From the NCBI GenBank assembly GCA_051294905.1, contig CM119373.1, positions 994,001 through 1,054,000 on the forward strand: a stretch of DNA of 60,000 nucleotides. The letters run 5' to 3'. The notes beneath the pieces were generated by a model. It did no database searches and had not been told where the DNA came from. It saw only the letters and a program-made list of their open reading frames with translations. The first letter of the stretch is position 1. Every line of letters begins with the position of its first letter. Positions 2,601 to 53,548 of the stretch are shown here, in pieces. A program made the position numbers and the translations under genes. This DNA is from Botryllus schlosseri. Its lineage: Eukaryota.

Positions 2601-3984
2601 ATATGGAGAAAATCTTTTTGTCTGTAAGAACTTGCCTGGTTGGATTAAACCTAAAAAGCCACAAATAGCATAGACAAAAGACCACTACAATCAAATACCA
2701 TATACGTATTTGAAAGCACTGTTACATCATTCAAGTCATAAGGCATTATGGTTGTTGGGAAAACAGCATCATCCTCAATTTGTGCAGAAAATTCCTGAGC
2801 CGACATTGATTGTTAAAATATTTGTGTAGCAGTTCAAAATTTGCATTGTCATTTCTTTCCGAATCTGAACCACTTCCTTTTCTGAGATTCTGACTTACAT
2901 TTAGCATGTACTCGCGGCATTGTAGCAGATACTTGACTAGAGTATGGTAATTAGGAAATACTGATGCAACAAATTACAACATAACTTTTAAATGAGTGAC
3001 CAAACTCATCGTAGCTAATGAAGTGTACTGTTGTCAACTGACGAGTGCGCCTTACTTAATATGCTGTTTAGAGTTTACCGGGTCATATTTATATTGAACT
3101 GGTAGCCCATTTGAAGAATGTAATGGTCAAAATTGTCTTATGCAACACCTGATCTTAGGGCAAATCTTGGTTGCAGTCAAATCCGTGGAAAGTTGCATTT
3201 ATTTTTCACTAAAGTTACACTAAAAAGGTATATTTATGGGTAAGTTCCTTGAAATTATTAAGGTATGAGATACTCGAATCGATGCGTATCCAAGGCACTG
3301 TCGCAAAACTCAGTGTTAGCGCCTTCGACAAAATCAATTGCCTGAAAAAATTGACCCAGTGGTAATATAATTTACGGCGGTCTAGCCTGAATGTGCGTCA
3401 AATCTGAAATGACCTCAAATTCAAACCACAGTGAAATAATCAAGCGATCTATTTACATATAGTACCAAATATTTCCAGTAAAAAGTGAGTTGCATGAAAA
3501 ATCGAAAAGCTGCAAAAATTGCTTGAAAAATGAAGAAAAGTTACAATTTAAGATTCCTGCAAACAGCTTAAAACACCATACTACATAACCTTCGAGTATT
3601 TAGGAAGCTGCCAGACAAGAAATGAACAAATCTTGACAACCCTGAGAATGGATTTTCATTCAAAAAAGGCCTAATTCACAACAAATATGTTGAGTCATGA
3701 GAATGGCTCAGTAAACAACAATATATATGCTATAATAGCCTACATGCTTTCATTGGCTTTTCAAATGACTATTTCCTTTGATATTTTGGATATTCAGGCT
3801 CAGTGTGGACCGGCTTCATTAGAAATTAACATACCATATGAAAGCTGGCATCAAGAGCTAGCAAGTAGAATCTCACACAAACATATACTGGAAAATTTTG
3901 ATGCACTGAAATATACACTGCTGCCACTAGGAAGTATATATTCAATAATAATTCATTACATGTTATAATATGACCTCACTGACA

Positions 3985-5045
3985 TAAAATAGAAGTAAGC
4001 TCTTTTAACAAGCACAGAAATTCAATTATCGAATACCGTTTATAGTACCATATTCTACATCGGTAGGCCTGCATGTGTTTTCACGGTTATTCGCAAAATG
4101 ATTACGAAAATTCGCATAAATGTGGGAGGGCGGGCCCTCATGAATTCTAAGTAAGCTCTTTTAGCGGGTGCAGAAATTTAATGATAGACTGTTTACGGTA
4201 CCATATTCGACATCGGTAAATATATTTTCACGGTTATTCGCAAAATGATAACGAAAATTCGCATAAATGTAGGGGGGCCTCATAAAATCAAAGCAAGCTA
4301 TTTAGCTGATGCAGAAATGTAATGATCGACTGCTGTTTACAGTACCAGATGCTACATGGGTACATATATTTTCACGGTTATTCGTAAAATGATAACCAAA
4401 AATCGCATAAATGAAGAAGGAAGGCCCTCATAAAATCAAAGTAAGCCATTTTAGCGGGTGCAGAAATTTAATAATTGACTACTGTTTACGGTATTATATT
4501 CTACAGGGGTACCTGTATTTTCACAGTTATTTGCAAAATGATAACATTCGCGTAAATGTAGGAGGGGGGCCCTTTAGCTACTGTCAAAATGGATAGAGAT
4601 CATAAAATAAAAGTGAGCTCTTGCAACTAGTGCAGAAATTTAATGATCAACTACTGCTTACGGTACTATATTTTACATATGTAGGCAGTAGGCCTACATG
4701 TATTTTCACAGCTATTCGCTAAATGATAACTAAAATTTGCATAAATGTAGGAGGGGGGCCCCCCTATAAAATCAAAGTAAGCTCTTTTAGCGGGTTGACT
4801 ACTGTTTACGGTATTATATTCTACATGGGTACATGTATTTTCGCAGTTATCTGCAAGATAATAACATTCGCGTAAATGTAGGAGGGGGGCCCTTTAACTA
4901 ATGGCAAAATGGATAGAGATTATAAGATTGAAGTGAGCTCTCGCACCAAGTGCAGGAATTTAATGATCGACAATTGCTTACGGTACCATATTCTACATTG
5001 GTGCATGGATTTTTGTGGTTATTCGTAAAATGATAACTAAAAAAT
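3985..5045. repeat. Diverged tandem array, about 7 units of 140-170 bp
   Basis: Recurring AAGTAAGCTC...GCAGAAATTTAATGAT...TTACGGTACCATATTCTACAT...TTTTCACGGTTATTCGCAAAATGATAAC...AAATGTAGGAGGGGGCC, with units starting near 3993, 4149, 4290, 4438, 4610, 4774 and 4931. Confidence 0.85.
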
Positions 5046-5649
5046 GTGGATTGATGTTTGACCCCTCTTTACGGTACAATACCAATATTCTTTATGGATA
5101 CAAGGATTCCGCGGTTATTCGGAGAATGGTAATACTTGAAAAAAAGCGCGTAAACCGGAGAAATATATAGTTGAAAAAAGCGCGTAAACTGAGGAGGGGC
5201 CCCTCGAAAGCGCGTAAATCAACCAAAGTATATGAGGATGTTGTGGAGTCTTTTCTTGTCCTGTAGTAGAAGTTGAATTGGTTATGTGTATCAAGTTCGA
5301 AGTGATTGAGAAAATCAAAAACCTTATATAAAACTGCATGGTGTATATTGCACAAGAAAGAGTCGACTCTGTATATAGGAACATATATTAACAAGAAAGA
5401 GTAACAATAAAAACGTAAATAGTAATAACTAATGTCTAAATGTGAAGAAAACCAGATGTATGGTAATAGTAACGTCTATATAGCTCGAGGTTCTAAATTC
5501 CCTGCTATACAAAGTTGGTTATTAACCTAGGCATGGTATAAGGAAATAATTATATATTTAAAAAAAGAGATACGGTATCTAGAAATATCAACGTAAGACC
5601 TTAGTAGCTTTCACACTCTATTTAACGTCCACTTGCGAATGAATATAAC

Positions 5650-5655
5650 TTTATT
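5650..5655 (-). promoter_or_regulatory. Putative polyadenylation signal of the PLE
   Basis: AATAAA on the minus strand 4 nt downstream of the hammerhead. Confidence 0.55.
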
Positions 5656-5659
5656 AGTT

Positions 5660-5696
5660 ACACGAGCTTTCGGAGCGCTGCTCCTTCATCAGGTGT
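5660..5696 (-). ncRNA. Minimal type I hammerhead ribozyme
   Basis: Minus strand reads ACAC-CTGATGA-A-GGAGC-AGC-GCTCC-GAAA-GC-TC-GTGT: intact CUGAUGA/GAAA core, stem II GGAGC/GCTCC, stem I ACAC/GTGT, UC cleavage site. Confidence 0.85.
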
Positions 5697-7068
5697 CAAA
5701 GTGAAAGTAACGCAAAAAGAGCAACGCAAAAATATTTTCAATTTGAACATATGCATATTATGACATCATAGGGAATGAGAAATTCTAGATACTGAAGTCG
5801 CGTACTCTATGACGTCATAGACACAAATATCAAGTTTTGATTTGAAATGCAAATAGTGAGTTGTGTGCCTAAAATCGGATTGGATAAGGTGTTTATATGC
5901 TAATTTGAAAAGAACAAAAAGTGCTAAGTCAAGCATTCATGGTGTAGTGAGACATACATCCTCTATCTATATTCAGCCCTTGTCGGAAAGTATCAAATTT
6001 GTCGATATATTTTTGTTCTGTAGCCTTGCGGAGAGTAGCGTCTTCCATGTTCCCGACCAATATATTGATAGTCATGTCGCTCTCCGAGTGCCCAGCGGAA
6101 GAAAAATGATCACCGACAGGCTTCGATTTGTTACCTTTCGAGATATCATGTCGGTGACCATTTACTCTCTTGTGGAGAGGTTGACTGGTTTCTCCTACGT
6201 TACGTAGGCTACGTACCATGCATTCGTACATCCTTTTCGACAGCGAATCAAATATACGACATTACTTGATTTACAAGTAAAATGGCCTTTGATGTTGTGC
6301 CGGGCGGGTCTTTTTGTAATCACGGTGCTGTGATTGAGAATAGCACACGTCTTGCATGATGGCTGTCCGCAATTTTCCACGCCATTTTCTCGTCTTGACC
6401 GAGGTAGCCTACTATTTACCAAAATGTTACGCAAGTTGCGTGGTTGCCGGATGGCTAAAATAGGTCTTCTCGGGAATACTTCATTGCATTTCGGATCGTT
6501 GATTAGTATTCGCTGATGTTTTCGTAAAATCTTACGGATCTTTTCTGCTCCCGGGAAATATGTAGTGACCAGCGGCACTCTGCGATCTTGTGTTTCCTCA
6601 TTGTGATTTCGCCTGCAATCAAGGAGCTTCTCTCGTGGTACATTGAGGGCCCTTTTTATTTGATTCCTTATCAGCTGTTGATCGTAGCCAGATTTGATTA
6701 GTTCGTGTTTCAAAACTTCCAAATGTTCATTTTTGTCCTCTTTCTTCGAGCAAATTTTATGAATTCGAAGGGCTTGCTGTAGACTATTCCTTTTTTACAG
6801 TGTACTGGATGGAAACTGTGGTAGTTTAAAATCTTACCAGAGTCCGTTGGTTTACGGTAGAGTGACGTGAAAATGCGACCTTCCTAGATGTTGACAAGCG
6901 TGTCGAGGAATGAAACTGCAGTCATCGAGCTCTCCATGGTCAGACGAATGTTAGGGTGAAAGTCGTTTATTGAATCATGAAACTTTTTCAGTGACTGTTC
7001 TCCATGGGTCCATATCATGAAAATGTCGTCGATGTATCTCGTATAAAATATTGGCCGCAATGTTTGTG

Positions 7069-7645
7069 TATAGATAACTAACCTACGGATAGATAGCCAA
7101 CAGCCGTCGTCACGCTTGCTTGCTCGGAGGAAAATACTGCTCAGCAATCTGAACTCAACGTAATTGCCAATCCCATAGCTGACGACCCGAGCGCTCAAAT
7201 TGAACAAAGTTGATCTTATTTGAACGCTACTGTCGCACTGATTCCGAAAATATACATTCAAATCCGATCGGGGCAATGGAACCGCCTCGAAATACACCTC
7301 AAAGTCTGAAAATTGGCATTGTTCTGAACAATCGAGGACACGCAAGGGTTATTGTTATGGTCATTGTGGTGCGTCCATGCGATTGTCTGGAACAATGCCG
7401 ATTTTCAGACTTTGAACGCTATTTCGGGCTGGTTCTTTTGCCTTGATGAAAGTTTAATGTATATTTTCGGAATCAGTGCGACAGTAGCTTTCTAATAATA
7501 TCAACTTTGTTAAATTTGAGCGCTCGGGTCGTCAGCTATGGGATTGGCAATTACGTTGAGTTCAGGTTGCCGAGCAGTATTTTCCTCCGAGCAAGCAAGC
7601 GTGACGACGGCTGTTGGCTATCTATCCGTAGGTTAGTTATCTATA
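7069..7645. mobile_element. Near-palindromic foldback MITE with 7-bp TSD (P-superfamily-like)
   Basis: Long inverted arms starting TATAGATAACTAACCTACGGATAGATAGCC. TSD GTTTGTG at 7062-7068 and 7646-7652. Removal restores the RT frame FMETQTLRPIFYTRYIDD. Confidence 0.9.
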
Positions 7646-10571
7646 GTTTGTGTCTCCATGAAATCTTCCTCAAAATGATGCATGAAAAGATTTGCGTATT
7701 GCGGAGCAAATTTCGTGCCCATTGCCGTTCCTTGAAGCTGTAGAAAGATCTCTTCGTTGAATTCGAACGTGTTGTGAGTTAACGTGAAGCCGATAAGTTC
7801 CATGATGCTTTTCTTTAAAGGATGTCCAATTTCTGCAAGAGATCTCTCCACAGCCTCCATGCCATCCTTATGAGGAATACTTGTATACAGGGATGATACG
7901 TCCATGGTGACTAATATCGTTCCTGATACTAAGTGATTGACATTCATGAGTTTGTTCAAAAAGTCCGTGGTGTCACGACAAAAACTTGGTGTGCTTTTCA
8001 CCAACGGTTTAAGGTGTTTTTCCACGTATCCAGATATGTCTTCCGTTATAGTTTTGTTGCATGACACGATGGGGCGTCCAGGAATATTCTCTTTGTGCAA
8101 CTTCGGTTGAAGATAGAAGCGGCCAAGAGAGGGATCAGACGGGATATTGATCTTTGATTTCTCGTCTTCTTCCATATCCAAGTATTTTATAATTTTCTTT
8201 AATCGTTTCGTGTGTTCTTTCGTTGGGTCACAATATAGTTTCTGATACGACACGGAGTCGTTCAACTGTCTGTAGCCTTCTTCTAAATAGTCTTTCAGGT
8301 CCATGACGACTACTTTTCCTCCTTTATCAGCAGGCTTGATTACGATGCTCTCTTCCTGTTTGAGTTCTGTGATTGCCTTTTTCTGCTCCTTCGTAAGATT
8401 TTCGTTGTAGTTTCTGTTGAGGTGTTTCGACTTACTAATGAATGTAGCGTTAATTTGGTTGTGGAAACTTTCTAGATATTTGTCCAAATTGTTGTTTTCG
8501 CTGTGAGGTGGCCTCCATCTTATGTTATTCTTGGGCTTCTTGTTAATAATTTGTTCAGTTATCTCGTTTCCATTCTGAGAAGCTTCAATTTCCGGATTGA
8601 CATCGTAAAAATGGTACTTGTTCCTCATTCTTCTGTCGAATTCATCGGCGTCTCCAGCTAACTCGTAAGGATCTAGTTTTTGAGTAAGGCAGAATTTCAA
8701 ATTAAGACTGAGAACATCGATTTGAGACTGCGTCAAGGTTTTGCTAGACAGGTTAGCAACGGCTATATCCGATTTATTACTTTTAGCTGTGGCGCCCGGT
8801 GGCAGTGAAATTTCGGATTTTTCCCTTTCCATTACCAATTGCGTGATTTTTTTCTCTTTTTGAAGTATCATACCTTTGACTTCGTTTGTCGAAATTTGTC
8901 AAGTAATCAAGTAATACGGTATGTAGCACTAGTGGTTAAATGGTATATGATGTGAAACGTATTTGAAAAAAAAATCTTCAAAATGGTATATTATATACAG
9001 TTCAATTTTATTTCCACGGAGTGATAAATTTCTTCTTGACTTTCTTGTTCCTCATTGGTTGTTGAATATTGTTTTAATTTCCTCCTAGAGCTGTAACCGA
9101 TTTGGAAGGGGAACGGATAGGAGGGTTGGGTAATGCGCCGAATATGTTTGCGTCGTCTTCGAAATCGATGGATGGTGTTTTGGAGGTAGTGGGGTTCCGA
9201 ATTGGTTCGATGGTAGCGGGTGAGTTCGGTGGTAATTATGCCGGTGTAAGTGTGGGAGGGGTGGTTGGAGTTGAAAGGGATGCAGGATTAGAGGGAGGCG
9301 GGTTTGAAATGAGTATTGTAGCCGATCAATCCCTTTTTTAGGGTTCTTGTATCAAATCGGAGGGTGAGGTCGAGTAAATGGTTGCGGATGGGGTTGCATT
9401 CGAAGGTAATTTTGAAATGTTTAGGGTAAATTTGGATGATGTATTGGTTAACGTAGGGCAGGTGGGATGGGTTGGTGCAGGTAATAATTATTCCGTCGAC
9501 TAGATAACGACGGAACAAGCGGCCAGGTCTCCAAATCTCCACAACCTGGCCGCTTGTTCCGTCGTTATCAAATTTTCTTCAAAAATGGCGAGGGTGAGGT
9601 CACCGGATTGGGCGAAGTAATAACTGCCCATTGCTAATCCATATTTATGAATGTACAGGTTATCAGCAGAGGAGAAGTAGCAAAGGTCTTGGCAAAAGAG
9701 GAAAAGATCGATAGCAAAGCTGGAGATTGGATGTGGGATAGTGATGGTGCTTTTAAGCTGATTAAAGGCATACATGACGTCCTCATTTCTTATGTTTGTG
9801 TATAAGGATTCGAAATCAAAGGTAACAATTTGGCTGTTGAACGGCGCGCTGGTAATCGTCGTGTTATCGAGAGCGGCTGCGATGTCATAGCTGTTCTTTG
9901 TTAGTGTGGGTGTAATGGCATGGCTCTCGAGGTGTTCGATGTAACCGTTCTTCCACTCTGTCAGGATATTGCCTAAAAGTTTGCCGGGTTCTACAGTAAT
10001 CCAAGAGTGAGCCGAAATTATGGGTCTGCCTTTCAGTTTTGTTCGTCTTTATGATTGAATGGTCCTAGTTCCAATTTATGGGGTTTGGGTGAAAGGTTGA
10101 AAAGAGGGATGAGACAGTTTTCTTTAGTTCTAAGTTCTAAAAACGCAACGTTCTGCATGTGTCTCAGTAATAGTTTTCTTATCACTGAGGGCCTTATCTA
10201 ACATTGTTTCTAAGCAAAGTTGAATAGGGGTGTAAATGTCTAACGGATTCATTAATGTACCAGTTGGTCGAATTAAAGCAGGATCCTAAATATTAATAAC
10301 TAAGGCCCGTATTTAAGAACACCACTCGGTGCTCAAACATCGCTTGAGTGCCTCAAACAATAATAAATGGTATTCAATAACGTAACTCAAATCTCAAGTT
10401 TAAGGTCGGTTTGAGGCACGCATTCTTGAGTATGAGTTTCTTGTGAGAACTCACGGTATTCTAGGAGACTCAGAATCTGCATACTTGAGGTTATTTCGCT
10501 GAGTTTGAGCACTTTTTTCAAGTTTGATCATAGGGAAGCTTGAACTAGACTTGTTAGCTCTCTGACTGATA

Positions 10572-11398
10572 GTGGACATTGCAAGTGAATGTAGTCGTTC
10601 TCGTAGGAGAACCCAAAGAGAGAAGGAGTTGCTGCATTCTCTCGTAGACAACTTTATGGGGGTTGTCGAATCGAAAAAAGTGATGCCAAATCAATCCAAC
10701 ATAAGAATGAAGCTTGGGAGAAGATCAGTAAAGAATACAATGCTATGCCTGATGTGCAGAAGTTGACAGTCATACAACTAAAAAAACTATGGCAGAACAT
10801 GAAGACCAGAGCAAAATCTGATATCTCTCGGGAGCGCACGGCAACGAAAGCTACCGGGGGAGGTCCACCTCCACCCGAAGTTGATGAGATTTCTAAAAAA
10901 ATCTATAGCGCAATTCCGTCACAGTTTGACCCTTTGCCGAATGACTTTGATGGTGATTTTAGCGGTTCTACCCAAAATGTCCAAGGGGTCATAATCCATG
11001 TGTCGGATGCAGAGTGTATGCCTTGTATGGATAGTACAGACATGGACAGCAGTTCTGTATCCAACTCTGGTGAGGTTCCTATCATTACAACCGCAGGGAG
11101 TAATGTTATCCTCAATAGTACAATGATATCTCAACAAGAAAATGCTAGCTTATCGGGATCTACTCAGCATACCAAGAAAAAATTGAAAGCACAAAACGAG
11201 GTCAATGATTTTATTTTGAGGAGTTTATCCGAGCAGCATGAGGCGAAAATGAAACAAATAGACCTGCAGATAGAACAACAAAAACAGGAACAAGAAGTTA
11301 AAATGGAGAAATACAAAGCTGAAATGAAGTTTCTTAAGGAGGAACACAAAGCAAGAATGGAAATTTTCAAAAGGAAAGCAGAAAACCTAAATAACTGA
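10572..11398 (+). pseudogene. Harbinger Myb/SANT-like DNA-binding protein (frameshifted near 10680)
   Basis: EKELLHSLV...VESK, then AWEKI...YNA...QLKKLWQNMKTRAK...ATGGGPPP and a C-terminal coiled coil. Confidence 0.8.
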
Positions 11399-11474
11399 AG
11401 CCTGTACCAAATTTTCATTGTGACGGCATGTTATGACAGATCATAATCAATACAGAATTTTGATGAGTGGTGAT

Positions 11475-11979
11475 TGTAGCCGCCGTACGGCCCCAAGGTG
11501 TCGCTGTGGCTCTTTCACACTCCCGCCGAACAAGGAAGTGGACCCAGTGTCATTGTTACCTCACAGCGGTAACTAGGTCTGACGTAGCGTGGTGCAATTC
11601 ACTGTTTAGTGCACGTGCGTTAGTGGTAGGATCGCTTTGGCATTAGTTCAGTTAATGGAATAGGAATAGTTAGGTTTATTGCATTGCTAGAATAGGGCTA
11701 GGTTAGGTCAATTCATTCATTGTCTCACTGTTTTGATATCTCGTTACAGTCAAAGTAAATCTATAAATAAAATAAACTAAAAAACCCGGAAGACACATTG
11801 TCAAGTAAGATGCTTTGTATTTGATTAGCTTAGTACGTACTTGCCAATGCTGATTGTATTTCATTTTTAATAGAAAACACGCACCAACAAAGCGAGTCTT
11901 TTTCTCTGTGCCGAAAGGGAATATAAGCAGCCAGATATTTCAATCCACCCTGTGGCGCGATCTGCGGGTTGCGGCTACA
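11475..11979. mobile_element. Solo LTR (505 bp)
   Basis: TGTAGCCGC...GCGGCTACA termini, 5-bp TSD GTGAT at 11470-11474 and 11980-11984, internal AATAAA. Confidence 0.85.
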
Positions 11980-11995
11980 GTGATCAATAATCATG

Positions 11996-14243
11996 TTACG
12001 GTAAGAAATATGGGTTTAGAAAAGACAAGATTCTGTTTCTTTGTGCAGAGATGAAATGGTTGCGGACTATTTCTTGTCGACAAGCTGCTCCGTTGTGATC
12101 GCTGTCAGGTACATGTGTAACAGGTACTTTCTCAGATACTTGACTAGAAGGATCAAGTTCGATGGATCTAAATAGAAATTCAAGTTTAGATATAGATGTG
12201 CACTGGTTTAGTGGTATGTGTCAAGGAGTTAAGACTTGAGCCCGGGTTAGTTAAGCAAAATCAGTTTACACTCCTCAGGTATGACGAAATAGCTTAGACG
12301 CTAAATACACTTTAACACTTTATCGGAGTTGACTATCAAATGGCAAGATCTATCTTCGTGGCAACCCAGAATGAACATTGACACTACTAATTGTTATCGA
12401 TAGGATTGAAAGGGTGTCTAGTAAGATTGCTTAGTGATAAACTTGTCAGGTTTCCTATAAAAACGCTACACACCAAATTTGGGCCAATTACGACCAGTAA
12501 AGGGCGTGCAATCCTGAATTGAAATTTCGACCATTTTTGAATTTATAGTATTTACAGTGGCAAATTTCGACACTCCGATGTGATCAAACTTCGTGTTCCA
12601 AGCATGACTGAAGGGAAAGTGATGTTTTTTTCACATATTTGCATCTTGATACTGGCCTGTTATAGCGTGGAGATAATGAAATTCCTGATTAATGAAAAAT
12701 TTGACACTGATTTGCTGGAAATGAGTCAACAAAATTGAAATAGTCTCGCTTAAACGATGGTGATATATTAGCAAATAAAATACTTTTAAGGCTGAAATCG
12801 TGCACTACGAAGAGAAAATGAACCGAGGCACAGGTAAAATACAGCAAAATATATTTCCCAGGTTAATATCGATGCCCGAAAGTATCTTTTGTAGTGCCGA
12901 TGTAGATTTGACGACGTTGTGGCTTTTTTCTTCGTAATACGTTATGATATTTGCTTTACACGATTCCTATATGCCTCTACAAGGGGGATTACTAATGCTA
13001 AGACATTATTTTCGAATTTTAGCCGACCTGCATCTTCATAGGGCAGGTATATGTACCGTAGTGAACCATAGTGTTTAGTTCAGTTATGCCATGATTTCAA
13101 GTAACATCATTGAAACATTCAACATAACTGGTTTTTATTTCGCAATGTAGAACAAGTACGTTTGGCCAACAAAACTCGAGTAGAAGGTAGGTAGAATTCA
13201 CCACTTGATTACATTGTGCAAGTATAGGCAATACCCAATTAAGTATGGTACTCCTAAAACAGTAGCTACTTTGTTACGGACCAGTGACCACTTCTCATTT
13301 GTATGCATGCACCCTTTGGCATACTGCCATCATTCTGCCTAGCCACCTAGCATATTTTTAACATTGACAAGAATTCAAACGGTGGAAACATAGTTGTTTT
13401 TACCTGGTACGTCTAGCATAGTTGTACAGTATGGCTGTAGCCACAACGATCCCCATGGTGGTGGAAACTTTTGTTCGTATACCCAGTGATAGGCAAGGAA
13501 AAACCCTCTTCCAGACTCCAAAGGTCCTCTCAATTGTGATCCTGGCCTTGATGAGCGGTTTGTTGAATTTTCTCTCGCCAACATTTTGTGGAGCCAAAAA
13601 TGGGGTCATAAGATATGGTTTGCAACCATACCCATTGTCACCCACTAGCATACCATCATTATATTGTCCATTTTCAAAACACTGCCTCAAGTTTGAATTC
13701 AAAAATATACGCGAGTCATGTACAGAACCCCTCCAACGTGCCACTACATTGGTGAACAACATATCGGAGTTGCAGACGGCTTGAACATTTAGGGAAAAAA
13801 ATCTCTTCCTATTTCTGAAGAGTTCGGCATCTTCACCGCCGGGAGATTGAATTTTTATATGAGTGCAATCAATTGCACCAATGATGCCAGGAAAGCTCCC
13901 CAAAAAAGCCCGATCCTGCTAACTGTTGGCTGCGAGACTCCTTCAAGGTCTCCAGTGACGACTTGGAAGCTTCCAGTTGCATAAAACCTGAGCACGGCTA
14001 GGAATTTCAAGATAGGTGGCAGTGGTTGACCTCGATCAGTAACCGAGATAAGGTCTGCCATCATTCCATGAATCCAACAACTGCCATCTTTGTTAAGCGA
14101 TATCTTTCAGTAAATTTCTCATCAGAAAACGTCTCCATCGGGTTGGTATAATCTAGCAAATATTTTCTTATGGCAGGTGCGCGGCAGGTGGTAAGATATT
14201 GGTTGACAATTTCTTGCAAATCTAGTGTATCGAGGAAATCCAT
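11996..14243 (-). pseudogene. HARBI1-like DDE transposase, frameshifted, with intron 12168-13403
   Basis: LRFYATGSF, GAIDCTH, GSVHDSRI, GDNGY, IERTFGVWK. GT-AG splice joins in frame to a last exon containing GAACRQEIVRNHF. Confidence 0.88.
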
Positions 14244-15511
14244 CTGTATAAATGAAAAGTATTCGGATATCTGTCAAGTCATCTTTATTACCAGGTCCAC
14301 CATAATCATTAGAGTATATTTTGATGGCAGCTATAATTGTTTGTAGAATTTACAGATATTATAATGCCATATGCTCCCCAAAAAAGCCCTGATACTGACC
14401 TTTAGCTGATTATGCTACAATTTTACAATCGCTGTGATGTACATTGTGCAAGTACATAGATACACATCTGAGCCTGCGACAAACTACGAACAGCATAGCA
14501 ATACAGCATTTCAACCCTAGTTTGCATTTTGCAGCAACACTTCAAGCATTCTGCCAGTATTTGACAACTTCATATTCTATCCAATATAACAGTTTCCACC
14601 AATCATAGTTCGAAAAAGCGGTCACCGATGAATGAACACTCAAGTCTCAACTCTATCTTGAGATCGGTCCAAAATGGACCTTGAATACCGCATCCGCTCT
14701 AAATATGAGGTGATCTCAAACTGATCTCAGATTGTGCGATCTTGAGCTTGTCTTGAAGTACCGTTCTTGAATACGGGCCTAAGTCTCGCCTACTTACGAT
14801 TCGTTCAATTTGTTCTACCTGATTCTTAGAAAATGTTGGCTTTATATGATTGGTATTTAATTTAGAGCCCCTAAAATTTTCCAAGTTATCCAAAGTATTT
14901 ACTATGACATCCCTAACACGATTGGGGTGTATTGCGAAAGAGCTTTGGATATGGTCGAATTGAATATATTTTGGAGATTGGGAGCGGAATGGGTTTCAGG
15001 AAAGGTTTGGGTTTTCTAATGGGGTCTCTATGGGGGTTGGTTTTTAAAAGTAAGTTAAGTACTGCACGGGTGACTTCTCATTTTTGAGTTTATTGTGGGA
15101 TCGAAATTGTTGGGTGGGTATAAAGAAGGGGCCTACACCTGAGATATCAGACAGAGCGTAATCCGGAGTGTATGTTGTGAAATTTTGGGAAGTAGTGCGA
15201 GGTTTGTTGAATTCTTCCGTGATATTTTTATTAATTAGATTATGGTGTGTGGTTAGTGAGGAGGTCATGTAAGTCTTGGTAGTAGAGGATAATTGATTTA
15301 GATGGTGTGCTGGACATAGTGTCGAGTTTTTGGGGATTATCGTCAGATGTGTAATTACGATATATAGCTGCTTTGAAGGCTTTTGCTGCTTTTTCATCAT
15401 CTCCATCCGCATTAAATAGCATTTCGATAGTAGTTTCCACTTCATGACATTTTATGTGTTTGGCCCGTTCCGTTTTCCCTGCATCATCAAGATTTTTTCG
15501 CATTCTCTCTG

Positions 15512-15610
15512 ATTAATGCATTCACTTTTCTTCATAGTTATGTCTTTCCCATATGGTTTCAAATCATTCAACCCCCTTATGCACAGCTGCATCCCAGTCT
15601 CCCATATGTT
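15512..15610 (-). pseudogene. Short Mutator-like/Kolobok-type transposase fragment
   Basis: Minus-strand frames give MGD(W)D..VHKG and DLKPYGKDITMKKSECIN, resembling the GDGD...PYG...K.EC.NH motif. Confidence 0.45.
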
Positions 15611-15714
15611 TAAATCCCAAAATCACTGGAGCACTTCCATAATTCTTTGGCAGTATGGTATGGAACGATTGGGTGGGTATGGAGTATGGAGAATTCCCAT
15701 TCCATACCATACAT

Positions 15715-16134
15715 TAGGCTTACCATATTTCGGAAATGAAAAAAGAGGACACTTTTTCAGAAATTTCAGACATGCAAAACTGCAGAAGAATTCTCAAAAA
15801 CCGGTAAATTTTTCCCACTTCATGATCGGTTGACTAAAAAAAAAAAGGTCATCACTTCCGCTCAGAGCTCAAAATCACGTTTTTCACTCCACATTGCCAG
15901 GTGGATGACTAAAAAAAAAAGGTCTTCTTTTCGCTCAGAGCTGAAATCACCACTTTTCCCTCCGAAATACCCGCCGGAGCTTCACTTTTCACTAATTTGC
16001 ATATCACTCGCAATTTTCTCTAAATCTGACCTAAATTTTCAAAAAAGAGGACAAAAGGCCGTCCTCCGAGGACACTTTCAAAAAAGTCAAAAAAGAGGAC
16101 AAATCCTCTTAAAAGAGGACGTATGGTAAGCCTA
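15715..16134. mobile_element. hAT MITE (420 bp)
   Basis: TIR TAGGCTTACCATA, 8-bp TSD CCATACAT at 15707-15714 and 16135-16142, subterminal AAGAGGAC repeats. Confidence 0.92.
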
Positions 16135-16152: not shown

Positions 16153-17777
16153 TATATATATATATATCGTCTTTCAATTAAATAAAAGGGCAAAAGAAAA
16201 CAGGAAACAAACGAACATCAAGATAATGAGTTTTCAGCCCTTATTAAGCGCCTCCATCGTGGGCGGTCGTGGGCGTCTTCGAGCGATAGCCCGCGTTGCG
16301 CTAGCTCGGTCTCTATTGTTGAGCGCCATGTGGTTCTATTCCAGCCACCTCTGCGCCATGGCTCCGTCGGAATGTGGTTGATGATGGCGGCGGCTGGTTG
16401 ATCGTCTTGATGCCGCACTAGATGACCGATTAAGCGTAAGCGTCGTTCAGCAGCCAGCAAACGGCATGGGACTGTTTTTGTGAGTTTGCGCAGAGCATTG
16501 GTGGATATGTGCTCCGGGTGGTGGATGCCGAGTGCGTAGCGGAGGAGTGCATCGTAGTTGGCGTTGAGTGTCTTAGCCAGCTTTTCTGTCAGCGTGAGTG
16601 CTTCTATTCCGTAGAGAAGAACCTGCTCGACAGTGGCACGGAAGATGCGGGTCTTGAGCTGGGTTGAGGCACTTGAGTGGAAGAGGCTATGTAGCCGTCT
16701 TGCCGCGCCCCAGGCCTTTGCTCGCCTCGCCTTGAGCGCTTTTCCAGAGTCAGCGACGTCAATACCGAGGTAAACAAAACTCGTTACATACTTGAGATCG
16801 ATATCTCCCAGTTGAATTGGTGTCGCGTTCGCCGGTAGAGCTGGTATGGCCAGAACCTCAGTCTTCTTAGCGTTGATCTGGAGGCCAACAAGAGCGGCGG
16901 CGGCCTCTAGCTGGTTTATGAGACACTGTGCCGATGCGGTGTTCGGGGCAAGCAGGGCTAGGTCGTCTGCGTATGCAAGAACACCTACGTGGATTGCCTC
17001 GCGAGTCGTACGCGTGCGCGTTCCTTGCCGTGGCCGCCGTTCGAAGAAGTCGTGGCATTCATGTCCCCAAGCAGCATGGTTATGTCGCGCTGCGGGTAGG
17101 TTGATAGAATGCCTTCTAGTTGGTCGTAGAAGGCGAGCGTATCAGCTGGGAAGGCAGTGGTGTTCGGAGATGTTGGTCCATACGCACACACTAGGTGCAG
17201 TTTGCGGCGACGGAGTTGAATGCTGGCTGTGATAATCCGGCTGTTTATAACGCAAATCTTTGCCTCGGCGTGGAAACGCTGGGACAAGATTAGACCGACG
17301 CCTCCAACTCCGCCTTGGTTGGCAGGTGATTGGATCATGATGATGCCTGCGCCTAGGTCTTTTTCACGGAATGGTTCGGTGAAGTGCTGGCGATGTTCTT
17401 GGATTGCCAACGCATCAAGTTTGAGGTCTGTCACAAGTGCGGCAGCTTCTTCCTGGCGCCATACAGAGTTCAAAGTTCTCGTGTTCAGAGTTCCAAGTTT
17501 AACTTCTGCATTTAGGCTAATCCTCAGGGATCTTGGTTGAGGCTTCGGGTCCCCGGCGCCACCCGGCAGATCCCAGTCTTTCTGTTGATATTGTCCCACT
17601 CGGCGAGTACGCAGTAACTTAAGGTAGTAAAGTCTTCGTCGCACTTTGCGACTTGGTCTACTCTGTTTACTGCCTATACTGCGCAGCACGTCCGAGCTGT
17701 ACGTAATCATTACAAAGCAATCAGCTAGCGGAGCGAGAAATACACGTCTGCACTCGGCGACTGACTAAAGCGACTTC
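16153..17777 (-). mobile_element. Internally deleted copy of the RTE-like LINE at 48089-51276
   Basis: Near-identical to both ends of the full copy, with about 1.57 kb missing at a junction near 17050. (TA)n tail. TSD GCCCTGGTTA at 16143-16152 and 17778-17787. Confidence 0.95.
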
Positions 17778-25190: not shown

Positions 25191-25257
25191 AAGTATCTTT
25201 TACAATATTGTCGCTGTATGGCCTCGAGATATCATGGATTAGTTATGAAATCAAACT

Positions 25258-25630
25258 GTCCACCAGAGTTTTGCGGTTGTGTAGGAGAGTTTTGCCGTAG
25301 TCTACCACAGAGTTTTGCTGTTGTCCACCAAAGTTTTGCGGTTGTCTACCAAAGTTTTGCGGTTGTAAAGGAGAGTTTTGCGGTAGTCTACCAGAGTTTT
25401 GCTGTTATCCACCAAAGTTTTGCGGTTGTATAGGAGAGTATAGTGGTAGTCTACCAGAGTTTGTTGTCCACCAAAGTTTTGCGGTTGTATAGGAGAGTTT
25501 TGCGGTAGTCTACCAGAGTTTTGCTGTTGTCCACCAAAGTTTTGCGGTGTATAGGAGAGTTTTGCGGTAGTCTACAAGAGTTTTGCGGTTGTCCACCAAC
25601 GTTTTGCGGTTGTATAGGAGAGTTTTCTAA
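25258..25630. repeat. About 21-bp minisatellite (AGAGTTTTGCGGTTGTCTACC-like)
   Basis: About 17 diverged units, bracketed by a roughly 65-bp direct repeat at about 25195 and 25717. Confidence 0.9.
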
Positions 25631-26152
25631 CAGAGTCACCCTCAAAACCCTGCTAGTTACCACCAAAACCATGCTAGCAACCCGCAAAAACCAGGCAGAT
25701 TCAGTTATATGCGTGCATCTTTTACAATACTGTCGCTGTATGGCCTCAAGATATCATGGATTTGTTTTGAAATTCAACTATGCACCAAATCTGATGATCT
25801 GTACGCGAAACCCACAAAAGCAAGGCATATTCAGGGAATGTGCGCATCTTCTACAATATTGTCACAGTATGGCATTTGAAGACATAGATTAGGCCTATGA
25901 TCTAATTCAGCATTAGGCAACACTCTCAGCAATTTGAGATGTCTAATGGGACATTCATGTAATTTCTTCACTCAAGTCTTCCAGTTAGAAGGGAGATAGC
26001 CAAAACACCTTGAGAAAAAGGGGAATAGTTGGGAATAGTTGAGTTTTTCAAGTGTGTCCAAAATTGTTGTTACATCACAAATAATGTACATCATGACCAT
26101 GTGGTAGCTCACTTCTTGAAATTTTAAGTACCAGTGGAAATTCACTAGCAAC

Positions 26153-27532
26153 ATGGCAGGAGCAATGGAAAGTACTAAGAATCCTTGTGTTGTTTGCTGC
26201 ATGCAATGTAGAGAGGACTGCATTGAATTTAGTCGGTGCAATGAATGGACTCATTTTAATTGCCTCAACGTGCATGTAAGTAAGGAATATATTGCTAGTA
26301 AAGAATACATCTTCTTGTGCACAAATTGTTATAATTTTGAAGATACACTGCAACGGATATCTTCCAATTTCAATTTGACTACAATGGATCATTTACCTCA
26401 GCAGGAGACCCTCATGATTGAAGCCCATGATTTACGTGCTCCAAATATTACTGGAACTGCAAAAAATCTGAAAGAAGATGTAGGTGCAGTGAAGATTCTT
26501 GAAAAATATGATTCAAAGGTCTTGGCCGAATATCAACCAATATCTGTTGGAACGGATGGAAATTGTTTATATCGCGCAATCTCCCTATTAATGTACGGTT
26601 CAGAGAGCATGCACATTTATTTAAGGACTCTTAGAGCAATAGAAATACTAAAAAATTCACAATATTACGATGACACTGCAAAAGATTATTCGGACCCCTT
26701 CAACGATTGGCGAATAGTATCAGCTTGTCATTATGGCTCACATTCAGACATTTATCATGCTCATGCCATTGCAAATTCCATGGTCATATCATTAGTATCG
26801 TACATGCCATCAGTAGGACCTCAGGACATGCGAGCTCCAGCCTATTGCAAGAAGATTGGAAATGTGCGCAAATTACCTTCGGGATCAGTCATGCGGTCCA
26901 ACACATCACCAAAAGAATTTGAATATAATATCAATCATTCTGTGGTGTTAAGGAAAAGGCATCAACCTGCATGCAATGACTCAGAGCCACTAAAGACTTC
27001 AGTGTCCAATACTACGGCAGTTGTGGTGGAGCAGAAAGGTACTTCCACACCTTCCATTGAAAGTTTGAATACTAGTTGTGACAGCGAGGAGCCTAAAATT
27101 GATGTAGATAGTAGTTTTTTGAAGCCTACTAATATGCAAGCTCTGCCTTGCAACAAATATCTTCCATTCAGAGAAATATTAACCAAGCTTTCCTCTCAAA
27201 TTAGATTGGATCTTCCGAGGAAAGTCCCAAATGGATTGAAGGAAGATGTGTATGTATATGTCACCTTCAAAGACAATGAAAAATGCAAATCTAATGGACA
27301 TCAAAGGGATTTTACGGATGACTGTGGGGCTTGGGAAAAATGTAGTTTCACATACAATTATTATTTGAAGGAAACCAAGGAGTACATTCACAAGCGTAAG
27401 GGTATTTTTTGCAGGAAAAAAATGATTGATGGTGAAAGTACCTTCACTTCTATAAAAAAATTGGTTCGTGATGACCTAATCGGAATCACTAGCTACTATG
27501 CAAAACTTAAAGCAGACAACAAATTGAGATAA
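26153..27532 (+). CDS. PHD finger + OTU/vertnin-like protease-domain protein, probably transposon-encoded and 3' truncated
   Basis: Open 459-aa ORF. N-terminal CxxC...C..WTHxxC...CxxC, then SVGTDGNCLYRAISLLMYG, a His box NHSVVL and DDCGAW. Confidence 0.7.
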   Translation: MAGAMESTKNPCVVCCMQCREDCIEFSRCNEWTHFNCLNVHVSKEYIASKEYIFLCTNCYNFEDTLQRISSNFNLTTMDHLPQQETLMIEAHDLRAPNITGTAKNLKEDVGAVKILEKYDSKVLAEYQPISVGTDGNCLYRAISLLMYGSESMHIYLRTLRAIEILKNSQYYDDTAKDYSDPFNDWRIVSACHYGSHSDIYHAHAIANSMVISLVSYMPSVGPQDMRAPAYCKKIGNVRKLPSGSVMRSNTSPKEFEYNINHSVVLRKRHQPACNDSEPLKTSVSNTTAVVVEQKGTSTPSIESLNTSCDSEEPKIDVDSSFLKPTNMQALPCNKYLPFREILTKLSSQIRLDLPRKVPNGLKEDVYVYVTFKDNEKCKSNGHQRDFTDDCGAWEKCSFTYNYYLKETKEYIHKRKGIFCRKKMIDGESTFTSIKKLVRDDLIGITSYYAKLKADNKLR

Positions 27533-47819: not shown

Positions 47820-48088
47820 ATAGCTCCCAAATATGGTCCAGAAAAATGCCCGGCATTTTCACACCTTGGCTAGGTAACGTGTCTAACCGTTTTGAAAAGC
47901 TTATTAAATCGGCTGTTCACCGTTGTTATTTCAGCGTTAACACGCATGTGGTGTACACGACGAAATCCTTGTTGCCCAACTCTCGAAAATATGAACTTCC
48001 TGCCTTCAATGCAAGCAATGTTGTCTACCAATACAAGTGCCACTGTGATAAGATTGTTTGAGCGTATTAGGCAGCATATCCCTTAACT
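47820..48088 (+). pseudogene. Penelope-like element fragment (thumb / GIY-YIG start)
   Basis: GPEK..PWLGNVS...SNVVYQYKCHC...RLFERIRQHIP. Confidence 0.7.
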
Positions 48089-51000
48089 ATATATATCGTC
48101 TTTCAATTAAATAAAAGGGCAAAAGAAAACAGGAAACAAACGAACATCAAGATAATGAGTTTTCAGCCCTTATTAAGCGCCTCCATCGTGGGCGGTCGTG
48201 GGCGTCTTCGAGCGATAGCCCGCGTTGCGCTAGCTCGGTCTCTATTGTTGAGCGCCATGTGGTTCTATTCCAGCCACCTCTGCGCCATGGCTCCGTCGGA
48301 ATGTGGTTGATGATGGCGGCGGCTGGTTGATCGTCTTGATGCCGCACTAGATGACCGATTAAGCGTAAGCGTCGTTCAGCAGCCAGCAAACGGCATGGGA
48401 CTGTTTTTGTGAGTTTGCGCAGAGCATTGGTGGATATGTGCTCCGGGTGGTGGATGCCGAGTGCGTAGCGGAGGAGTGCATCGTAGTTGGCGTTGAGTGT
48501 CTTAGCCAGCTTTTCTGTCAGCGTGAGTGCTTCTATTCCGTAGAGAAGAACCTGCTCGACAGTGGCACGGAAGATGCGGGTCTTGAGCTGGGTTGAGGCA
48601 CTTGAGTGGAAGAGGCTATGTAGCCGTCTTGCCGCGCCCCAGGCCTTTGCTCGCCTCGCCTTGAGCGCTTTTCCAGAGTCAGCGACGTCAATACCGAGGT
48701 ATACAAAACTCGTTACATACTTGAGATCGATATCTCCCAGTTGAATTGGTGTCGCGTTCGCCGGTAGAGCTGGTATGGCCAGAACCTCAGTCTTCTTAGC
48801 GTTGATCTGGAGGCCAACAAGAGCGGCGGCGGCCTCTAGCTGGTTTATGAGACACTGTGCCGATGCGGTGTTCGGGGCAAGCAGGGCTAGGTCGTCTGCG
48901 TATGCAAGAACACCTACGTGGATTGCCTCGCGAGTCGTACGCGTGCGCGTTCCTTGCCGTGGCCGCCATTCGAAGAAGTTCGTAGTATCCGGGAAGGCCG
49001 TTCGCAGCACGAAGTCAAGGATGACCACAAACAAGAATGGTGCCAGGGTGTCACCTTGAAGCACACCAGCCGAAGTGTTGAAATCTCCGCTTGGGCCGTC
49101 ATCTGTTCGGACTCGCGCTCGTGTGTCAGTGTAGAGGGCCATAATGGCGTACGTTATCACCTCAGGAATTCCATAGAATCTGAGGATCTCCGCCATGGCT
49201 GGGCGCGAGACCGAGTCGAAGGCTTTCGCGAAATCAACGAAAACGGCCACAACATTCTTTTTGTGTGAGCGGCAGGTGTCAATGATTGTGCGCAGTGCCA
49301 GGATGTGCTCTGTTGTACCGCGGGATGGTCGAAATCCATTCTGAGCATTCAGGAGCTTGGTAGAGAGTTGCTCACGTATGCGAAGGAGCAGTACTCGGTC
49401 GAACAGCTTGGCAGCGGTCTGCATCAGGGAGATGCCTCTGTAGTTCGCTGGGTCACTCGCAGCGCCTTTCTTGTAGATAGGGACGATTTCGCTCTCGAGC
49501 CACTCGGGGGGCACCGGGCCGCCTTCGAGGACGCCATTCATGATGTCGAGGAGCACAGGTGCAACGCCCGAGGTGTAAGCAGCCGTTGGGATGCCGTCCG
49601 TGCCGGTGGCCTTGAATTGTGGTACTCCACTCATGGCTGTCTTGAGCTCACCTAGCGTGATCAGGGTTGTATTGATCGCTAGAGGATTTGCTGCTAGTGA
49701 AGGCGGTGCAACGAGCACATCGATGTCCGGTGCAGGTGTAGATAACAGGGTCTCGAAGTGTGCTGCGAGGTCTTCCGTACAGGCCTTCACGCGGGTCCTC
49801 TTGAAGCCAACTAATTCACCGATAGCTTTCCAGGCTGCTCTTGGTCGGCCTGCTTCCAACTCCTTTTCCACGGAAAGGGCAATGGCTTCGACTCGTTCCT
49901 TGCGAGCTGCGTCGTAAACGTTTGTTAAATATAGAGCTGCCTCGTTCGCATCGCTATGTGCGTCCAGTGTTCCAGAGGTGTACGCAGCACGTCTGAGAGT
50001 CTTGAGGTTGCGGCGCGCACTGAGCACTGTCGGGTCGGATTCCCAGGCTAATCTTGGCCGTGGCTTGCTACGGGCCTCACCGAGCGTTTCACGGGCGGCA
50101 TCCTTGACTGCTGCTACAAGTGGCGCAAAGTCGGTCGGCATAGCATTTTGGATCTCGAGGGCGCGGAGTGTGTGCGTGGTAAAGACATTCATCGTATTTG
50201 CGTCCTTAAGATCGAACCAATTTGGTAGGGGCTCTTTCGGTGTGCGCTTCGGGACGAACGGGAGGCGTTCACGAAGCGTGGCCAGCACCATGCGATGGTC
50301 ACTCCTGATCGTTAGCATGCGCACCGTTCGGCAGTTCGTGAAATGGCGCCGTGCGGGAGCATTGCAGCAGATATAGTCCAGCCGTGTGTTGCGTTGGCGC
50401 ATACCGTCAAATGTCGTCATACGCTTCGGCTTCATAGAGAAGTTGGCATTGAGAGGAATGAGGTCGCAGCGGTCGAGTAGATTGGTAAAATGCTCCGAGT
50501 TGCTGTTCTCATGGCCAACTGGGAAGCGAACTCGCTGCGAGCGCTCGGCCAACGTGGCATTCATGTCCCCAAGCAGCATGGTTATGTCGCGCTGCGGGTA
50601 GGTTGATAGAATGCCTTCTAGTTGGTCGTAGAAGGCGAGCGTATCAGCTGGGAAGGCAGTGGTGTTCGGAGATGTTGGTCCATACGCACACACTAGGTGC
50701 AGTTTGCGGCGACGGAGTTGAATGCTGGCTGTGATAATCCGGCTGTTTATAACGCAAATCTTTGCCTCGGCGTGGAAACGCTGGGACAAGATTAGACCGA
50801 CGCCTCCAACTCCGCCTTGGTTGGCAGGTGATTGGATCATGATGATGCCTGCGCCTAGGTCTTTTTCACGGAATGGTTCGGTGAAGTGCTGGCGATGTTC
50901 TTGGATTGCCAACGCATCAAGTTTGAGGTCTGTCACAAGTGCGGCAGCTTCTTCCTGGCGCCATACAGAGTTCAAAGTTCTCGTGTTCAGAGTTCCAAGT

Positions 51001-51276
51001 TTAACTTCTGCATTTAGGCTAATCCTCAGGGATCTTGGTTGAGGCTTCGGGTCCCCGGCGCCACCCGGCAGATCCCAGTCTTTCTGTTGATATTGTCCCA
51101 CTCGGCGAGTACGCAGTAACTTAAGGTAGTAAAGTCTTCGTCGCACTTTGCGACTTGGTCTACTCTGTTTACTGCCTATACTGCGCAGCACGTCCGAGCT
51201 GTACGTAATCATTACAAAGCAATCAGCTAGCGGAGCGAGAAATACACGTCTGCACTCGGCGACTGACTAAAGCGAA
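48089..51276 (-). mobile_element. Full-length RTE-like non-LTR retrotransposon
   Basis: Single intact ORF, 5' and 3' UTRs of about 60 nt, (TA)n tail, TSD TTAACT at 48083-48088 and 51277-51282. Confidence 0.93.
48147..51212 (-). CDS. APE endonuclease / reverse transcriptase (1021 aa)
   Basis: GTLNTRT, IQE, GDMNA, LDYI, SDH (APE). NYRGISL, QNGFR, FVDFAKAFDSV, GVLQGDTLAP, LAYADD, YLG (RT). RTE-type end AHDRPRWR. Confidence 0.96.
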   Translation of the reverse strand: MITYSSDVLRSIGSKQSRPSRKVRRRLYYLKLLRTRRVGQYQQKDWDLPGGAGDPKPQPRSLRISLNAEVKLGTLNTRTLNSVWRQEEAAALVTDLKLDALAIQEHRQHFTEPFREKDLGAGIIMIQSPANQGGVGGVGLILSQRFHAEAKICVINSRIITASIQLRRRKLHLVCAYGPTSPNTTAFPADTLAFYDQLEGILSTYPQRDITMLLGDMNATLAERSQRVRFPVGHENSNSEHFTNLLDRCDLIPLNANFSMKPKRMTTFDGMRQRNTRLDYICCNAPARRHFTNCRTVRMLTIRSDHRMVLATLRERLPFVPKRTPKEPLPNWFDLKDANTMNVFTTHTLRALEIQNAMPTDFAPLVAAVKDAARETLGEARSKPRPRLAWESDPTVLSARRNLKTLRRAAYTSGTLDAHSDANEAALYLTNVYDAARKERVEAIALSVEKELEAGRPRAAWKAIGELVGFKRTRVKACTEDLAAHFETLLSTPAPDIDVLVAPPSLAANPLAINTTLITLGELKTAMSGVPQFKATGTDGIPTAAYTSGVAPVLLDIMNGVLEGGPVPPEWLESEIVPIYKKGAASDPANYRGISLMQTAAKLFDRVLLLRIREQLSTKLLNAQNGFRPSRGTTEHILALRTIIDTCRSHKKNVVAVFVDFAKAFDSVSRPAMAEILRFYGIPEVITYAIMALYTDTRARVRTDDGPSGDFNTSAGVLQGDTLAPFLFVVILDFVLRTAFPDTTNFFEWRPRQGTRTRTTREAIHVGVLAYADDLALLAPNTASAQCLINQLEAAAALVGLQINAKKTEVLAIPALPANATPIQLGDIDLKYVTSFVYLGIDVADSGKALKARRAKAWGAARRLHSLFHSSASTQLKTRIFRATVEQVLLYGIEALTLTEKLAKTLNANYDALLRYALGIHHPEHISTNALRKLTKTVPCRLLAAERRLRLIGHLVRHQDDQPAAAIINHIPTEPWRRGGWNRTTWRSTIETELAQRGLSLEDAHDRPRWRRLIRAENSLS

Positions 51277-53365: not shown

Positions 53366-53548
53366 AATCAGTAGTAAACTCTGTTATGAGACTAATAAAA
53401 ACAACAACAACAGATGATCAATTGCAGCAATAACAGAATGATGAGAAACGATAAGTGTTATTCACTTCCAATGCCAATACATCAATGTGCAGTTGTGCAC
53501 TTTCCAACTTCACGAATCATTTGCAATTTACTCAGTGCACAAGAATAG

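Follow-up and report, generated by a model that had tools for sequence, protein, structure and literature searches.

A decayed Penelope-like element in Botryllus schlosseri and its relatives point to an apparently distinct lineage without an endonuclease

The window, a 60-kb stretch of Botryllus schlosseri DNA, carries one dead, 5′-truncated Penelope-like element (PLE) reverse transcriptase (RT) copy on the minus strand at about 15330-8900, which is colinear with and approximately 79% identical to an intact relative of 960 aa (P0001). The 5′ ORF piece (14783..15332, minus strand) corresponds to P0001 aa 282-460, is frameshifted and retains the N-terminal motif in its GPxFIP form (tblastn 15317-14780, E 2e-12 and 8e-30), while the RT core, thumb and natural C-terminus (9008..10303, minus strand) correspond to P0001 aa ~461-960. 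These are followed by the start of the 3′ UTR (8900..9007, minus strand), which is cut off by a neighbouring PLE as indicated by composition and by one contig whose match to the neighbour stops at 8899. The 5′ truncation was placed at about 15332, where one contig departs from the window sequence, and strand composition there is G-poor below about 15350. A 147-bp tandem array at 3970-5063 together with the stretch 5630-5200 might represent the rest of the 3′ UTR; no homologous DNA backing this assignment was found.

Stops, frameshifts and missing DKN codons showed that the window RT is dead and the copy an inert relic. The first Asp of its YxDD motif reads Val, about 45 thumb codons are absent near 9150, and other contigs possess extra letters relative to the window at 9148-9152, 10040, 10150 and 10232. 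Read depth over the RT reached at most 3 (trace) in two RNA runs, and a Pfam search of the window RT pieces and the upstream frame returned no match. A hairpin of 67 bp (9503..9569), lying between motifs B and C, is probably a local inverted duplication, because one of its arms is native coding sequence (PGRLFRRYL), and its reading as a MITE was rejected on the same ground.

Several other elements were identified in and around this copy. A PIF/Harbinger DNA transposon (10304..14779; DDE_Tnp_4 E 3e-32, Myb_DNA-bind_5 E 4e-11) lies inside the PLE ORF just before the DK motif. Its terminal inverted repeats (GGCCCGTATT) at 14779 and 10304 and the TTA target duplication (14782-14780 and 10303-10301) bear out the insert originally placed at 10304-14782, an interval that therefore comprises the Harbinger plus one target duplication. 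About 110 bp past the PLE stop codon begins a separate, younger, 5′-truncated canonical PLE (5640..8899, minus strand) with a DKG motif, a CxxC linker, a GIY-YIG endonuclease (EN) at its C-terminus and a hammerhead at 5692, itself interrupted by a palindromic insert at 7069-7645. A very high-copy MITE (15715..16130; terminal inverted repeats GGCTTACCATA) lies upstream and is unrelated to the PLE. The window copy would have been struck, after its insertion, by the Harbinger, the EN+ PLE and small deletions.

Lineage members encode one long ORF of about 680-960 aa, ordered as a helical N-terminus, GPxFIP, DKN[LMI]G, PK[VP]HKL..KGRPI, FDFxSLYT, GLxMG[SC]Y, R[YF]xDDG, the thumb and a basic KKLK..L.K.KLH.K tail. 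PLE membership is indicated by the TERT-related RT, the Gx(K/P)F and DK motifs of the N-terminus (the latter read from P0001, these codons being deleted in the window copy) and the PLE thumb; TERT was also the top fold match, and PF26215 was listed for P0001. With only 50 aa between SLYTNI and GLAMG, the fingers hold no insertion, and the P0001 sequence contains no CxC linker; the original prediction saw neither feature in the window copy. The whole unit of one relative (L001) closes at 6,732 bp and holds one RT ORF; it lacks an endonuclease, and domain searches picked out no other long ORF on the sense strand. In L004 the start of the unit recurs after 6,270 bp, and L007 holds an inverted copy of the same recurring end; relatives occur as tandem or inverted copies. 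In L007 the cut in the RT falls on the 3′ side, an arrangement that goes beyond simple 5′ truncation and counts against the explanation favoured here. In the P0006 cluster, full-length members (9 of the 15 listed) were located on Mb-scale contigs of seven different sizes, a distribution suggestive of recent spread that did not need an endonuclease. None of the 135 viral_contigs candidates or the 72 genome_contigs candidates belonged to the clade, and the nearest Atlas clusters were mostly rotifer proteins.

Hammerheads were sought by pattern search; Rfam did not detect the one known at 5692. No core was found in 8900-10300 or 14780-15340, in line with the original prediction, and the same search recovered the 5692 motif of the neighbour; the 3′ UTR of the window copy is itself cut short. 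The pattern search gave nothing convincing in L001-L004, L006 or L007, including the whole unit L001 and the recurring unit L004.

Phylogenetic analysis placed the lineage RTs in one clade (support 100/99), outside four motif-identified Naiad rows (100/100) and separate from 14 rows of DKG or EN+ type. Row labels were assigned by motif, with the Coprina side represented by unnamed DKNLG rows only and no Chlamys, Hydra or Athena rows in the tree. The clade meets 20 other EN-less or DKNLG rows at one fork, a joint grouping that was not rejected (p-AU 0.47). Neither of the other deep placements was rejected among the three compared: the tree forced to join the clade with Naiads exceeded the unconstrained search by 3.9 lnL (p-AU 0.57), and grouping with the C-terminal-EN elements gave p-AU 0.42. 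The proposal that this RT nests in no described clade held in this tree with respect to the four Naiad rows and the C-terminal-EN groups; nesting within Coprina is possible. The lineage is apparently distinct and undescribed, and may form a branch of Coprina.

One alternative is that the lineage belongs to Coprina as an animal branch and uses exposed telomeric overhangs as primers, with the window copy being a stray or a relic near a telomere. The DKN motif combined with the lack of an endonuclease, the shared fork, the mostly rotifer Atlas neighbours and the degenerate CCCTAA-like repeats in which L003 ends, 1.2 kb past its stop, all favour this. However, telomeric repeats were absent from the 60-kb window and none were seen in L001, L002 or L004, the start of L004 adjoins transposon-like DNA, a whole unit lacks a hammerhead, and the lineage's signatures in motifs A and B are unlike those of the two Coprina-type rows in Craig et al. 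Fig. S1, leaving this explanation unlikely. Similarly unlikely is an origin on the Naiad/Chlamys side through loss of the N-terminal endonuclease, CxC motif and IFD. It is favoured by the FDF of motif A and the longer RT2-RT3 stretch common to Naiads and the lineage, by the likelihood of the constrained tree, and by the EN loss and IFD loss reported within the Naiad/Chlamys group, where some Naiads also lack the IFD (PMC8557442). Against it, the clade falls outside the Naiad rows, DKN replaces DKA, neither a CxC nor an EN remnant was present, and joining with the C-terminal-EN group was not rejected either.

The original prediction also raised a permuted element, in which 15240-15503 would be the latter half of a GIY-YIG domain at the N-terminus of the window PLE. 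The quoted open frame is present at 15240-15512 and continues into sequence matching the PLE, but only its last ~26 codons (15317-15240) align to P0001. The GIY-YIG likeness disappeared on scoring: a PLE endonuclease profile gave the stretch 0.6 bits, matched or exceeded by 258 of 300 shuffles, in comparison to 46 bits for the true endonuclease of the neighbour. No GIY-YIG match was found in Pfam, PHROG or Atlas (none at 0.9 or more in the last). P0001 is unrelated to the stretch at the corresponding place, its own N-terminus being an OTU domain and no nuclease, and one contig carries the upstream segment into other DNA without the PLE. A permuted, N-terminal GIY-YIG branch is therefore very improbable. 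From the loss of P0001 similarity, a drop in depth and the contig that runs on elsewhere, 15333..15620 (minus strand; KTERAKHIKCHE) seems to be a separate decayed repeat outside the PLE. By a motif likeness it could be a Mutator-like transposase fragment; domain and cluster searches were negative for this label, and a pattern scan for Mutator-type references was also empty.

Endonuclease absence at the other end of the protein was confirmed: coding of this minus-strand PLE-type RT ends near 9008 with no GIY-YIG thereafter, and the EN-less branch first proposed gained support from intact P0001, which lacks a C-terminal GIY-YIG and stops at the same residues as the window copy. In relatives from distinct clusters with a complete C-terminus (20 of 20), the protein stops 205-228 aa past YxDD and carries no endonuclease, in comparison to 293-374 aa for nine matches of C-terminal-EN type. 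Since P0001 is colinear with the same end and all complete relatives agree, this sequence comparison indicates that the missing GIY-YIG is native to the lineage and not a deletion in the window copy. Because Pfam GIY-YIG was weak even on the true control endonuclease (E 0.04-0.14), a custom profile was relied upon; among its 116 targets, nothing exceeded 4.5 bits in the 110 non-control frames (control 46 bits). C-terminal endonucleases served to train this profile, and its positive control was the neighbour's enzyme, not one of Naiad or Chlamys type; together with domain search it found no N-terminal GIY-YIG in P0001 or its relatives. The reading as an ordinary EN+ Penelope that lost its 3′ endonuclease, through deletion or through displacement by the canonical PLE beginning ~110 bp downstream, is refuted by the P0001 alignment and least probable of all, as the stop precedes the junction, the complete relatives lack the domain too, and the neighbour RT is only ~22% identical and elsewhere in the tree.

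The N-terminus of P0001 matched the OTU cysteine-protease domain (PF02338; 42.8 bits vs a cut-off of 23.3, E 9e-11), with a weak match to OTUD3. The catalytic Cys27 and His136 are present, and the domain may be active. Two residues after the His, where OTU domains usually have Asp or Asn, P0001 has Trp. AlphaFold models of the domain were of low confidence (single-sequence OTU fold pLDDT 33). P0001 alone among 6,085 candidates showed the fusion and an OTU was seen in no other member; the evidence is one protein on one contig, and the 5′-truncated window copy lacks that part. Whether the window subfamily once carried the domain is an even chance, and it is a tentative suggestion that the OTU would strip ubiquitin from the RT or RNP and allow escape from degradation. 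A PHD-OTU-like ORF is also found in the window at 26120; it was rejected as the source of the P0001 domain (E 0.2).

In summary, the window copy is best explained as a dead member of an autonomous-RT, endonuclease-less PLE lineage, to which we assign a probability of roughly 0.7. The RT of this lineage would bind its own RNA and, somewhat more probably than otherwise, prime on a 3′-OH that it did not make, most likely at a nick or break in the chromosome interior (copies are known from contigs without chromosome placement, and some may be subtelomeric). A co-resident EN+ element may supply such a nick or break, or it may come from damage and its repair, and priming on a foreign 3′-OH would yield 5′-truncated and partial-tandem insertions. 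A broader proposal, possible though less probable, is an ancient, undescribed third EN-free PLE clade beside Athena and Coprina, spreading in (probably animal) chromosome interiors as 6-7 kb tandem units without nuclease or hammerhead, priming on breaks or on nicks of other elements, and with one branch bearing a captured active OTU deubiquitinase. If true, it would offer a natural model of a telomerase-like RT working away from telomeres. A diverse clade of EN-less elements that includes intact multi-copy families, and shows no sign of hammerheads or telomeric priming, would require another primer source, and bears on how telomerase-like RTs initiate synthesis and on the order of endonuclease gain and loss in PLEs.

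In comparison to known PLEs, the lineage has DKN in place of the DKG motif of Penelope/Poseidon, Neptune and Nematis, and lacks their C-terminal GIY-YIG, RT clade placement and pLTR hammerhead. Many members share MGSYD in motif B with Hydra elements (PMC8557442; motifs compared by eye against supplement alignments), but the DKT, RWK, ITLKDHK/CRLINP/FYPSI, C-terminal GIY-YIG and hammerheads of Hydra are all absent, and a pattern scan found no Hydra-type references. A C-terminal RT, the motif A FDF and the lack of a canonical hammerhead are shared with Naiad/Chlamys (PMC8557442), as is the longer RT2-RT3 stretch with Naiads; the lineage differs in lacking the N-terminal GIY-YIG, CxC and IFD, in having DKN instead of DKA, and in standing apart from the four Naiads. 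Athena/Terminons of bdelloid rotifers likewise combine an EN-minus PLE RT with tandem units, but possess two or more ORFs with a separate coiled-coil ORF1, hammerheads and telomere attachment; L001 showed one RT ORF and no further long sense ORF that matched a domain. Deubiquitinase-type proteases occur in other transposons, as an OTU in Helentrons (PMC6431247) and a Josephin-like domain in Chlamys-1_cBra and Dualen (PMC8557442), and P0001 likewise fuses such a cysteine protease to a transposition protein. No PLE RT with an N-terminal OTU turned up in our searches; if real, the fusion adds PLEs to the transposons with deubiquitinase-type domains. Coprina groups PLEs lacking an EN from fungi, diatoms and spike moss, and the shrimp element MjPLE01 has been both filed there (PMC13159263) and termed Neptune-like (PMC8557442). 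The lineage shares with Coprina the TERT-like PLE RT, DKN motif, lack of an endonuclease, single long ORF and terminal direct repeats or tandems, but differs in that no telomeric repeats (degenerate ones in L003) or hammerheads were seen, in its own FDFxSLYT and MG[SC]Y[DH] signature with extra residues before motif A, and in the OTU domain of the closest relative of the window copy.

The element occupies the minus strand in two pieces, a 5' piece at 15332-14783 and the reverse transcriptase (RT) at 10303-9008, which are separated by a Harbinger transposon (14779-10304) with the TIR GGCCCGTATT, a TTA duplication, and DDE_Tnp_4 and Myb ORFs. The window RT copy is dead and showed stops, frameshifts, the absence of the DKN codons and a Val in place of the first Asp of YxDD; a hairpin lies inside it at 9503-9569. 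Further old copies in Botryllus schlosseri were found on contigs about 85% identical to the window RT. Upstream of the element are a purine-rich segment (15620-15333), a very high-copy MITE (16130-15715) and a minus-strand LINE 3' end (about 17770-16160). The assortment of transposons in the window would point to an animal host. This LINE copy (16159-17776) terminates at a (TA)n tract, has an internal deletion of 1.57 kb and is 99.8% identical to an intact minus-strand LINE at 48088-51278 that encodes 1,039 aa with AP-endonuclease/RT. Elsewhere, a second Harbinger-type DDE_Tnp_4 ORF with an adjoining MADF-like frame was identified at 52883-54505 (minus strand), as was a 21/63-bp minisatellite within an open frame at 25257-25626.

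About 110 bp of minus-strand UTR separates the element RT from a neighbouring canonical PLE (8899 to about 5640, minus strand), which possesses the DKG motif, a C-terminal GIY-YIG domain and a hammerhead at 5692. The hammerhead core at this 3' end is canonical (CUGAUGA, 5-bp stem II, GAAA; minus strand), though it was not detected with Rfam. The neighbour is interrupted between its motifs B and C by a palindromic insert of 577 bp (7069-7645), and a tandem array with a unit of ~147 bp lies downstream of it (3970-5063). Repeats of 150-175 bp also occurred in non-coding parts of the metagenome relatives L002 and L004, and their comparison with the window array showed no sequence likeness.

The window RT fragment retrieved 8 proteins (932 candidates), the best of which was P0001, an intact protein of 960 aa from one 3,669-bp contig with 78% identity to the window RT. 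Mapping by tblastn demonstrated that the two are colinear, with P0001 aa 282-460 corresponding to 15317-14780 and aa 469-960 to 10289-9005, while aa ~851-895 are absent from the window copy. Their C-termini were concordant (KKKFNTPWKNN in P0001, KKKFITPWK-stop in the window), indicating that the window copy is not 3'-deleted and that its lack of a C-terminal GIY-YIG is native. In all 20 relatives from distinct clusters whose C-terminus is complete, the protein stops 205-228 aa past YxDD, most of them sharing a basic tail, and 9 hits of the C-terminal endonuclease (EN) type extend 293-374 aa past it. In the AlphaFold model of P0001 most of the RT was confident and aa 1-187 were poor; Foldseek placed TERT at the top, with LINE-1 ORF2p and Prp8 close behind.

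The original prediction had also read 15240-15503 as a possible N-terminal GIY-YIG, and this reading was rejected. The C-terminal endonucleases of 12 PLEs found among the protein hits were combined into a profile, which was run on 116 targets. The neighbour control reached 46.2 bits (E 3e-14), with a further 13.1 bits in an adjacent frame, the highest of the 110 non-control targets reached 4.5 bits, and the frame at 15240-15512 scored 0.6 bits, a value equalled or exceeded by 258 of 300 shuffles. Below about 15350 the strand becomes poor in G, read depth drops across 15286-15546, and a contig of 540 nt that matches 15575-15332 then continues for about 245 letters foreign to the element. The segment upstream may resemble a Mutator-like transposase motif when read across its frameshifts; domain, pattern and database searches gave no confirmation of this identity. 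The observation behind the prediction was mostly right: the analysis supports an EN-less element but not an N-terminal GIY-YIG.

A phmmer search yielded 100 representatives (E ≤0.001). A quick tree of 54 rows, which excluded fragments <330 aa, the chimeric protein P0038 and rows lacking the required motifs, placed the window RT within a 22-row clade (SH-aLRT 99). A careful tree of 55 rows (LG+G4, no mixture), with 17 clade rows picked from the longer members and P0053 skipped, gave the clade a support of 100/99. In this tree, which had motif-based reference labels throughout and lacked curated rows for Coprina, Athena, Hydra, Chlamys and TERT, the clade was separate from 4 Naiads (L009-L011 and P0140; 100/100), from the 14 rows of DKG or EN+ type (81/99), and from 20 others that were mostly DKNLG. 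None of three deep placements of the clade was rejected by AU tests: grouping with Naiad (p 0.57, 3.9 lnL better than the free tree), with DKNLG rows (p 0.47) or with EN+ rows (p 0.42).

Among 208 metagenome candidates 11 were confirmed, 8 clade-like and 3 Naiads. Searches of every frame of the relatives found no endonuclease, Rfam gave no match up to E 2, and a pattern search gave no convincing hammerhead. Locus L001 is self-closing with a 127-nt overlap, giving a 6,732-bp unit with a single RT ORF. In L004 the element starts at 642 next to unrelated DNA and the same start recurs at 6912; L007 holds an inverted copy of this end. The shared end (L004 642-826, L007 1266-1450) has different flanks, and in L007 it is inverted relative to an RT that has lost its 3' side, whereas truncation usually affects the 5' side. 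Within 750-1870, L004 also contains repeats of ~174 bp. Each of them includes a short, basic, exon-like frame (MLRAPARTRKNGG...) as well as a CUGAACA...GAAA string that is hammerhead-like but non-canonical. The P0006 protein cluster had at least 9 full-length members among the 15 of 16 listed, on contigs of 7 different sizes (0.5-5.2 Mb), and the P0003 cluster had 8 members on contigs of 6 different sizes.

What we observed is an ORF that encodes an RT alone, copies in tandem or inverted arrangement, and families in which many copies are intact. Such elements would move by target-primed reverse transcription, with the 3'-OH coming from another source, for which interior nicks or breaks are the likeliest candidates (probability roughly 0.55). 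According to Craig et al. (PMC8557442), EN-minus families arise on adoption of another 3'-OH source. Otherwise the 3'-OH may be taken from telomeric overhangs in a Coprina-like manner; the L003 contig terminates in degenerate repeats that resemble CCCTAA (4700-4784, 4 CCCTAA words, 1.2 kb past its RT stop), which counts against a purely interior lifestyle, and the copies are known from contigs without chromosomal placement.

P0001 carries an OTU match at aa 23-114 (E 9e-11, 42.8 bits, cut-off 23.3) with the catalytic Cys and His both in place. As no counterpart of aa 1-281 was found in the window, the window copy's own family can only be presumed to have had an OTU domain, and a search of 6,085 candidates for further fusions returned P0001 itself as the 1 match. 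A plus-strand open frame of 470 aa (26120-27529) combines a cluster of PHD-like cysteines with a weak downstream resemblance to OTU (E 0.005), and comparison showed it to be unrelated to the P0001 domain.

No published description of the clade or of any OTU-PLE was found in the literature covered, which included the accessible parts of PMC8557442, PMC13159263, PMC6431247 and PMC4209133; Repbase and subscription papers fell outside this scope, and members may therefore already be deposited as unclassified Penelope. DKNLG, GLAMGSY, DFESLYTN and OTU had 0 matches in a non-exhaustive search of the available PMC8557442 supplement text, and the supplements of 10.64898/2026.07.22.740005 may list PLE RTs. 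By analogy with the Josephin-like domains that PMC8557442 describes in Dualen and one Chlamys type, and with the OTU of Helentrons (PMC6431247), the P0001 OTU may act as a deubiquitinase. Among known PLEs, Hydra shares MGSYD with the clade, while its other motifs are absent from it, and Coprina shares the DKN motif, which PMC13159263 gives as a Coprina motif.
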